In this document: positions 22,118 to 22,316 of the stretch, in pieces
How positions within the stretch are numbered: position 1 is the first letter of the stretch
How the letters are laid out: every line of letters starts with the position of its first letter
Source: a virus
Lineage: Duplodnaviria > Caudoviricetes
IMG/VR virus record: IMGVR_UViG_3300031555_003626
Coordinates: 169,330-233,329 of that record
Length of the DNA stretch: 64,000 bases
Strand: one strand, 5' to 3'
Position numbers and translations under genes: made by a program
The notes under the pieces: generated by a model
What the model saw: only the letters and a program-made list of their open reading frames with translations
Told to the model about the DNA's origin: nothing
Databases searched by the model: none

Positions 22118-22316
22118 GCTTCCGTAGCTCAGCTGGTAGAGCAACAGACTTTGATTGAATCGTTTAAATGGGTTATTAGATTAGTGAATGGTATAAACCT
22201 AATTTAATAAGTTCTGTTCGTAGGACATCGGCCTGATAGCCGAAGATGTGAGTTCAAGTCTCGTTTCAGTCACCATAATCTGTGGGTCGCGGGTTCGATT
22301 CCCGCCGGAGGCACCA
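22118..22316 (+). tRNA. tRNA-Lys(UUU) interrupted by nested 123-nt tRNA-like element (22153-22275)
   Basis: Removing the insert restores ACAGA-CTTT|TAA-TCTGT; canonical D and T arms; ACCA. Confidence 0.8.

Follow-up and report, generated by a model that had tools for sequence, protein, structure and literature searches.

Transfer RNA (tRNA) introns of bacteria and phages are, as far as we know, held to self-splice, and protein-spliced tRNA introns are held to be confined to archaea and eukaryotes. The closest described case comes from the Lak megaphages, whose tRNAs carry “enigmatic” introns, one of which possibly itself encodes a tRNA (Devoto et al. 2019, PMC6784885); a 2026 survey of jumbo phages repeats the remark on a tRNA-encoding intron (PMC13037316). 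In both reports the inserts were noted, the class was left undefined and a mechanism was not proposed (PMC6784885, PMC13037316). In this study, we analyzed a stretch of 64,000 nucleotides (nt), hereafter the window, from the 233-kb genome of a gut phage (IMG/VR virus record IMGVR_UViG_3300031555_003626, positions 169,330 to 233,329), the record of which is rated complete. The window contains a tRNA-Lys(UUU) gene (22118-22316) in which an insert of 123 nt (22153-22275), itself shaped like a tRNA, separates anticodon base 35 from base 36.

Like the Lak-type inserts, the insert in the window is tRNA-like, lies in the anticodon region, and is present in some genomes and absent from close relatives (PMC6784885, PMC13037316). 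Moreover, it sits in the anticodon loop, extends from an acceptor stem to CCA with a stacked T arm, and leaves a 7-nt loop upon excision, as is characteristic of that type. Unlike in the Lak reports, the host gene is the tRNA-Lys of a 233-kb phage that uses the standard code, the insert measures 123 nt and carries an extra arm, and its boundaries, covariation and empty sites, together with the ligase content of the phage, were tested.

The interrupted tRNA-Lys gene and its insert

The Rfam tRNA model covers 22118-22313 with 53.1 bits (E 6e-10) and a single 125-nt insertion in the anticodon loop, a match beyond what chance would give. In-silico excision of exactly 22153-22275 yields a 76-nt tRNA, called Lys(ttt) by ARAGORN, in which the loop CUUUUAA is restored within a Lys-type body with A73. 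The junction between U35 and U36 is exact, with zero bases duplicated or lost at the insert site. The parts of the gene are as follows.

22118-22152, + strand: 5' exon, with the acceptor 5' strand, D arm, anticodon stem 5' strand and loop bases C32 U33 U34 U35; it terminates in ACAGA-CTTT
22153-22275, + strand: insert (intervening sequence), 123 nt, tRNA-shaped, absent from six syntenic lineages
22153-22159, + strand: insert acceptor 5' strand GATTGAA, 7 of 7 positions paired with 22265-22271, covariation across 10 inserts
22173-22210, + strand: extra AT-rich 12-bp hairpin between acceptor stem and D-like arm, without counterpart in the 86-nt insert of the relative L044
22211-22226, + strand: D-like hairpin GTTCTG-TTCG-TAGGAC with a GTTC/GGAC stem and a loop without G18 and G19, from alignment to the tRNA model
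22228-22243, + strand: anticodon-arm-like hairpin TCGGC-CTGATA-GCCGA with a 6-nt loop, from alignment to the tRNA model
22248-22264, + strand: insert T arm GTGAG / TTCAAGT / CTCGT, with T-stem covariation, common to the Leu insert
22265-22275, + strand: insert acceptor 3' strand TTCAGTC (22265-22271), discriminator A (22272) and CCA (22273-22275)
22276-22316, + strand: 3' exon, with U36 A37 A38, anticodon stem 3' strand, variable loop, T arm, acceptor 3' strand, A73 and CCA; it opens with TAA-TCTGT and closes with ACCA

The gene was overlooked by ARAGORN in default mode. In intron mode, the program called it Gln(ttg) by forcing the junction one base further on; we rejected this call because the Lys/Asn-type D arm, the variable loop, A73 and the uninterrupted syntenic alleles fit Lys(UUU). 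Since standard finders miss or misname such an interrupted gene, phage tRNA repertoires are undercounted. A second tRNA-Lys was not found by ARAGORN anywhere in the phage genome, in which AAA and AAG make up 7.6% of the codons, and the interrupted gene is its only tRNA-Lys.

The insert spans base 1 of an acceptor stem, a T arm, and a discriminator A followed by CCA. The original prediction, made from the DNA letters, had described a nested 123-nt tRNA-like element in tRNA-Lys(UUU) with the acceptor GATTGAA/TTCAGTC-A-CCA, and each of these features was recovered in place; one of the seven acceptor pairs is U-G. The centre of the insert consists of three hairpins: the D-like hairpin, the anticodon-like hairpin (stem strands TCGGC at 22228-22232 and GCCGA at 22239-22243) and one extra 12-bp arm, whose 12-nt strands TTATTAGATTAG (22173-22184) and CTAATTTAATAA (22199-22210) are 92% complementary. 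The prediction had counted the AT-rich and the anticodon-like hairpins as central extras. Both are real; however, it had missed the third (22211-22226), and only the AT-rich 12-bp hairpin with its linker is truly extra.

When scanned alone against the Rfam tRNA model, the insert scored 29.9 bits (gathering score 29) over 22201-22272, a match obtained only with a mispaired proximal 5' strand. We interpret the insert as a cloverleaf plus about 48 extra bases (22161-22208, AT-rich hairpin included) between the acceptor stem and the D arm; no paralogue of the extra 48-51 nt was found in the 233-kb genome. Judged by its predicted loops, the inner element cannot be a decoding tRNA, because its anticodon-like loop, CUGAUA, is 6 nt long and G18 and G19 are missing from its D-like loop. 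The predicted tRNA-in-tRNA (double-cloverleaf) fold of the whole gene shows full base pairing, with an energy that exceeds the minimum free energy by 4.8 kcal/mol. As a separate observation, the 5' exon end (22146-22151) is complementary to the T loop of the insert (22256-22261), and the first six bases of the 3' exon (22276-22281) are complementary to the extra hairpin (22178-22183); these matches may be due to chance or reflect guide-like pairing.

Three tRNAs are interrupted in this one genome (Lys, Leu and Gln), and the exons of all three are intact. The two sibling inserts are:

20292-20359, + strand: 68-nt tRNA-shaped insert in tRNA-Leu(UAA)
21516-21578, + strand: 63-nt tRNA-shaped insert in tRNA-Gln(UUG), with a homologous, CCA-less insert at the same site in the phage locus L050

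The T-arm context of the Lys insert had been predicted to be shared with the Leu insert and to point to a common origin. The sharing was confirmed by an 18-mer, GATGTGAGTTCAAGTCTC, located at 22245-22262 and again at 20329-20346. Because the same 18-mer was also present in ordinary tRNAs of 21 viral contigs in our viral-contig scan, it is not diagnostic, and by itself it is weak evidence of common origin. The proposed kinship is nevertheless upheld by a comparison across the 233-kb genome, where the Leu insert is the sole significant match of the Lys insert (24 nt, 96%, E 2e-5), and the acceptor stems of the two are alike.

Empty sites and related inserts in other phages

An open reading frame (ORF) for a 61-amino-acid (aa) Zn-ribbon protein lies directly downstream of the interrupted gene (22337-22522) and has homologues at 70-93% identity; the samples with relatives include animal-gut sets such as ERZ272... 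and ERZ286.... Directly upstream of this ORF, six lineages carry an uninterrupted tRNA-Lys with the loop CTTTTAA (loci L205/206, L211-214, L215, L218, L219/220 and L226). In four of the six (L211-214, L215, L218 and L226), this tRNA is preceded by the conserved leader that also precedes the gene in the window. The exons of the window gene are 69-83% identical to these uninterrupted syntenic tRNA-Lys genes. The uninterrupted alleles fix the boundaries of the insert and show its sporadic occurrence. In a seventh lineage (L224/225), tRNA-Lys is interrupted by another tRNA-like insert, of 75 nt, which is located one base earlier (CTT, insert, TTAA) and ends in the tail ACTA. Separately, at approximately L207:2943-2980, a lone T arm with an acceptor 3' strand and CCA follows a tRNA-Lys(CUU) without any 5' half, and is maybe the remnant of a lost tRNA.

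The closest relative outside this genome is L044 (also L031 and L049), an interrupted tRNA-Lys whose exons are 93.4% identical to the spliced sequence of the window gene. Its insert, of 86 nt, has the same acceptor stem apart from one compensated pair (A2-U71 to G2-C71). The D arm of this insert is normal, the AT-rich hairpin is absent, and its interior otherwise differs from that of the window insert. The two also share a 12-mer, CCTGRTAGCCGA, in the anticodon-like arm, where CCTGATAGCCGA of the window insert equals CCTGGTAGCCGA of L044 at 11 of 12 positions. From this pattern we infer that selection kept the exons and the minihelix formed by the acceptor stem and T arm, whereas the interior was free to drift. 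The two genes have unrelated flanks, which suggests that the interrupted gene moved as a unit, displacing a resident tRNA-Lys; such movement could plausibly be due to the HNH and GIY-YIG endonuclease genes present in these clusters. An intron-less allele of this exact tRNA type was not found in the viral contigs of IMG/VR, the best uninterrupted tRNA-Lys there being 88% identical. When the locus was compared with the phage GenBank collection, a 45-nt T-arm match was all that emerged, and no relatives were found via the polynucleotide kinase (Pnkp)-like protein encoded upstream.

We searched other phages with a 5'-exon pattern (a Lys-type tRNA up to CTTT plus one non-T base), and two kinds of interruption were obtained. 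The first kind comprises same-site Lys inserts with G as their first base and NCCA as their last four (L027/L041, L031/L044/L049 and L050). The second comprises introns of about 200-230 nt located within one base of the site (L034, L035, L038, L039, L047 and L048); the one intron checked, that of L038, is a group I intron by Rfam (RF00028, 69.3 bits) and served as a positive control. A 3'-junction pattern, CCATAATC, was contaminated by matches to CCCATAATC, apparently genes with a CAU anticodon (tRNA-Met-type), and still yielded several real inserts. A metagenome scan with a gapped pattern that proved too loose gave 120 matches, nearly all due to chance, with L199 (a 129-nt Lys insert) as the only real one. 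Two further Lys-type tRNAs, in a 360-kb phage (L037) and in L029, have inserts after CTTT that resemble neither a tRNA nor a group I intron.

The 3'-junction search and a custom scanner extended the list to about 20 distinct inserts, 22-129 nt long, which interrupt tRNAs for Lys, Asn, Thr, Gln, Leu, Arg, Gly and Pro, and in-silico excision yields a canonical tRNA each time. In about 20 independent cases, the insert starts and stops precisely where a mature tRNA would. In other phages, inserts at the Lys 35/36 site measure 44-129 nt, and those in non-Lys tRNAs 22-118 nt. The smallest are 22-nt hairpins with CCA in tRNA-Arg (L073) and tRNA-Pro (L080), the former being a bare 5-bp hairpin with GCCA; intermediate members are armless mini-tRNAs; and a complete tRNA-Gly(UCC)-like gene is nested in a tRNA-Asn at L057:2158-2232. 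Expanded inserts occur in the window (Lys, 123 nt), L050 (Thr, 118 nt) and L199 (Lys, 129 nt), each with the expansion at a different place. One phage (L073/L080) has five interrupted tRNAs, all with intact exons.

To assess conservation, we aligned nine Lys inserts and the Leu insert of the window. Only the ends of these 10 sequences align, and the interiors do not. Acceptor and T-stem cells are paired in 94.9% of instances, versus 64% in shuffled sequences and 39-48% with slid partner columns, and 10 of the 12 acceptor/T-stem pairs show changes on both sides. Thus, only the acceptor/T minihelix is conserved, with strong covariation. The scanner required acceptor pairing and L199 was picked on pairing, which inflates the acceptor-stem figure and counts against it, although most sequences of the set were found without any pairing filter; the T-stem figure is not inflated, because the T stem was never a search criterion.

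At L027/L041, L050 and L056, the Lys inserts end in CCA, although the ordinary tRNAs of these loci mostly lack an encoded CCA (present in 1/5 at L027/L041, 0/3 at L050 and 0/3 at L056). The Gln insert of L050 is CCA-less and homologous to the Gln insert of the window, with several compensated acceptor pairs. In this insert, the discriminator is immediately followed by the 3' exon, and the classical cleavage position of RNase Z falls at that boundary.

A proposed splicing route and its rivals

Since the insert ends are mature tRNA ends, the ordinary tRNA end-processing enzymes fit as an excision route. We therefore propose, with about an even chance of being right, that the insert is cut by RNase P at its 5' end and by an RNase Z-like activity at its 3' end, and that the exons are sealed by an ATP-dependent phage ligase. 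In the precursor, the insert would fold independently into an acceptor/T minihelix with discriminator and CCA, and its central arms would be dispensable. Host RNase P would treat it as a pre-tRNA and cut between the outer U35 and the first G of the insert (5' of G22153), leaving a 3'-OH on the 5' exon. Bacterial RNase P prefers U and G around the cut, a stacked helix and ACCA, and also cleaves minihelices; the insert shows U before its first base, G as first base and a 12-bp stacked acceptor/T helix with ACCA. An RNase Z-like 3'-end endonuclease would cut directly after the CCA of the insert (after A22275), leaving a 5'-phosphate on the 3' exon. The two exons would be held together by pairing of the outer acceptor and anticodon stems, and the nick would be sealed by an ATP-dependent RNA ligase, most likely the T4-type Rnl1 of the phage, giving the predicted junction ...GACUUU, followed by UAAUCUGU.... 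A 3'-OH/5'-phosphate nick in a tRNA anticodon loop is the natural substrate of T4 Rnl1.

The Rnl1 of the phage (396 aa, at 131804-132994 in the phage genome) was identified by PF09511 at 49 bits, and its residues 46-345 match the T4 Rnl1 structures 2C5U, 5TT6 and 9DO4; the genome further encodes a ligase of the Rnl2 family. A third candidate RNA ligase, a 431-aa protein with a weak PF09414 match, was rejected as a DNA ligase. Additionally, a putative end-repair enzyme is encoded upstream of the tRNA cluster, with about 2.5 kb between it and the first tRNA-like sequences (near 19900):

16457-17383, + strand: polynucleotide-kinase-like protein, 308 aa, matching AAA_33 (2e-25) and the kinase domains of the bacterial Pnkp structures 4GP7 and 4XRP

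Its kinase domain is clear (residues 3-155), and its C-terminal half has no family match. Searches of the phage genome did not reveal RtcB, the splicing endonuclease EndA (PF01974), a metallo-beta-lactamase RNase Z or nuclease, a CCA-adding enzyme or a reverse transcriptase.

Across phages, an ATP-dependent RNA ligase is present in 6/6 complete insert-bearing genomes, and RtcB in none of the six. A ligase with an OB-fold and an Rnl domain (PF21189, as in Deinococcus DraRnl) was found in 8/11 insert-bearing records versus 0/16 comparison records; the carriers are G002-G008 and G010 (the records of L044, L050, L054, L057, L078, L080, L056 and L070), and the window phage has no ligase of this type. 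These ligases are ORFs of about 340-520 aa with an N-terminal PF21189, joined to a weak PF09414 where checked (DraRnl/Rnl5-like). As the two sets are unmatched for ancestry, we regard this association as a lead only, which may reflect ancestry rather than function.

Several points weigh against the proposed route. Splicing is put forward here from DNA rather than from RNA evidence, and the enzyme for the cut after CCA is hypothetical. Many RNase Z enzymes are blocked by CCA, and bacteria usually mature precursors that carry CCA by means of exonucleases, whose action would degrade the 3' exon. Tails vary within the class, being ACTA in L224, GCAA in the Gln insert of L041 and absent from the Gln insert of L050. 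Most syntenic relatives manage without the insert, and it brings no obvious benefit. Finally, ligases are common among large phages and are not specific to insert-bearing ones, as Rnl1 or Rnl2 also occurs in 5/10 complete comparison phages; the resulting contrast (6/6 versus 5/10, one-sided Fisher p about 0.06) is not decisive and may reflect phage size or ancestry.

It is unlikely, in our view, that the gene is simply dead, that is, that a tRNA-like insertion inactivated tRNA-Lys, that no splicing occurs and that host tRNA-Lys is used instead. The sporadic distribution of the insert, with six syntenic lineages without it, would suit such a loss, as would the frequent dispensability of phage tRNA genes, the related L224 insert that ends in CTA rather than CCA, and the fact that the case for splicing is one of inference. 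However, the exons keep all canonical tRNA features and reach 53 bits even with the insert present, and they are intact in all three interrupted tRNAs here and in all five of the L073/L080 phage. Moreover, the minihelix covaries across lineages, and between the window and L044 the exons are 93% identical and the acceptor stem is compensated while the interiors have almost fully diverged. A drifting interior between kept exons and a kept minihelix is therefore hard to reconcile with a dead gene.

Decidedly unlikely is a second alternative, in which the insert is removed by different machinery: a phage or host endoribonuclease that leaves a 2',3'-cyclic phosphate and a 5'-OH, with the ends healed by the Pnkp-like enzyme and sealed by Rnl1 (as in T4), or sealed by host RtcB, or else a small self-cleaving fold. 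The match of insert ends to mature tRNA ends in about 20 independent cases speaks against it, even though the 3' tails differ within the class and the nuclease for the cut after CCA is hypothetical. A polynucleotide-kinase-like gene does lie just upstream of the tRNA cluster, and six-nt complementarities tie both exon ends to the insert; the phage itself, however, is without EndA and RtcB. As for self-cleavage, the Rfam scan of the insert returned no ribozyme, only tRNA and one chance-level match (E 3.4), and the group I-like introns at this site are about 200-230 nt and the one checked is recognised by Rfam, whereas the window insert is not.

Quite improbable, too, is the idea that the inner RNA is the product, such that RNase P and a 3' nuclease release a tRNA-like small RNA (say, a Y-RNA-like module, or a decoy that engages tRNA-targeting nucleases or tRNA modification enzymes) and the outer tRNA is a processing scaffold, or that both are used. 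The 6-nt anticodon-like loop and the D-like loop without G18 and G19 preclude decoding, the interiors are not conserved and members of the class can be as small as a 22-nt hairpin with CCA (L073 Arg and L080 Pro). These observations outweigh, in our judgement, the full cloverleaf that the insert retains and its score at the Rfam tRNA gathering level, the complete tRNA-Gly(UCC)-like gene within tRNA-Asn in L057, the 12-mer of the anticodon-like arm kept between the window and L044 inserts, and the other tRNA-mimic RNAs in the same cluster.

The original prediction had also connected the insert to PrrC. tRNA-Lys(UUU) is the target of PrrC, which cuts it at 33/34, and T4 counters PrrC with Pnkp and Rnl1. 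A specific link is not supported, as inserts also occur in Asn, Thr, Gln, Leu, Arg, Gly and Pro tRNAs and the junction lies at 35/36. It is thus very doubtful that the insert serves to shield the anticodon loop of pre-tRNA-Lys from PrrC-type nucleases until late maturation, a role compatible with any splicing route and at most an additional reason to keep the insert: the phage has both enzyme kinds of T4 repair (Pnkp-like and Rnl1), and eight distinct Lys inserts were seen, though with search patterns built on tRNA-Lys, whereas inserts interrupt at least eight tRNA species, the junction differs from the PrrC site, a mature tRNA is after splicing as exposed as any other and most syntenic relatives have no insert.

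Returning to excision by RNase P and an RNase Z-like activity followed by ligation, we tentatively extend it, with somewhat less than an even chance, to tRNA-shaped introns at large. These would represent a third, protein-dependent mode of tRNA splicing, wherein RNase P and RNase Z excise the insert and a 3'-OH/5'-phosphate ligase (Rnl1, Rnl2 or an OB-fold Rnl5-like enzyme) rejoins the exons. If so, large phages would carry Rnl1, Rnl2 or Rnl5-like ligases partly for routine tRNA splicing and not for repair alone. As for their origin, the inserts may go back to such a ligase sealing a mature tRNA with its CCA end into an anticodon loop that had been broken.

The surroundings of the gene include further RNA elements. 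The tRNA cluster in the window comprises 13 ordinary tRNAs, a GOLLD RNA and several odd tRNA-like genes. Two features lie immediately upstream of tRNA-Lys:

21971-22005, + strand: promoter-like sites upstream of the tRNA-Lys unit, three overlapping sigma-70-like matches at 10/12 positions, by consensus match only
22012-22117, + strand: structured leader between promoter and tRNA-Lys, alignable in four syntenic phages (L211, L215, L218 and L226)

The leader (about 105 nt) has three predicted hairpins with compensatory change in 2 pairs; it is perhaps a small RNA or a processing or regulatory leader. Downstream, a tRNA-like gene at 22532-22691 (Rfam tRNA, 31.8 bits; anticodon loop CTGTAAC) carries about 90 nt at the position of the variable arm and is kept, with changes, in a syntenic phage (L224:1696-1867). 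It is directly followed by a weak RAGATH-33-like match at 22713-22823 (43.6 bits, gathering score 120). The GOLLD RNA at 26165-26678 scores 156 bits, above its gathering score, lies within the tRNA cluster and has a tRNA-like sequence embedded.

Comparison with known splicing and processing systems

To our knowledge, splicing by RNase P, an RNase Z-like enzyme and a ligase has so far been shown for no tRNA, and our search of the literature found no paper showing or proposing it. If our proposal is true, it would constitute a new splicing route made wholly of housekeeping tRNA enzymes, phage RNA ligases would gain a second job beside damage repair, and the “enigmatic” tRNA introns of megaphages would be explained. 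To those introns, the present analysis adds the expanded five-arm Lys variant, the empty-site alleles, the apparent movement of the interrupted gene as a unit, the comparison of CCA ends with the phages' own tRNA genes, and the ligase census with its comparison set. The Lys case suits experiments: its boundaries are fixed by intron-less syntenic alleles, its ligation would be a textbook Rnl1 reaction and its interior is evidently free to vary and hence replaceable.

Group I introns, such as those of cyanobacterial and plastid tRNA-Leu(UAA) and of phage tRNA-Lys, resemble the window insert in their anticodon-loop site and sporadic distribution. The insert was nonetheless rejected as a group I intron, as it has 123 nt, neither a match to RF00028 nor a group I core, and a last base A instead of a terminal G.

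The tRNA introns of archaea and eukaryotes (EndA/TSEN, with RtcB or Trl1) likewise involve the protein-dependent removal of a short anticodon-loop insert, followed by ligation. Their junction, however, lies at 37/38 and passes through cyclic-phosphate and 5'-OH ends, whereas the junction in the window lies at 35/36 with predicted 3'-OH and 5'-phosphate ends. A bulge-helix-bulge intron was rejected as well: the junction strands measure 4 nt and 7 nt between two helices, a 4-bp middle helix is lacking and PF01974 is absent from the phage.

The repair of tRNA in T4 shares the last step proposed for the window phage, namely the sealing of an anticodon-loop break in tRNA-Lys by Rnl1. What is mended in T4 is damage inflicted at 33/34 by a host nuclease, whereas the break in the window phage would arise from the excision of an encoded insert at 35/36.

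Finally, tRNA-shaped elements direct RNase P and RNase Z cuts at both of their ends in mitochondrial transcripts (tRNA punctuation) and in MALAT1, which yields mascRNA, and the insert described here would act likewise. In those systems the flanks stay unjoined, whereas the flanks of the window insert are two halves of a tRNA that need ligation.

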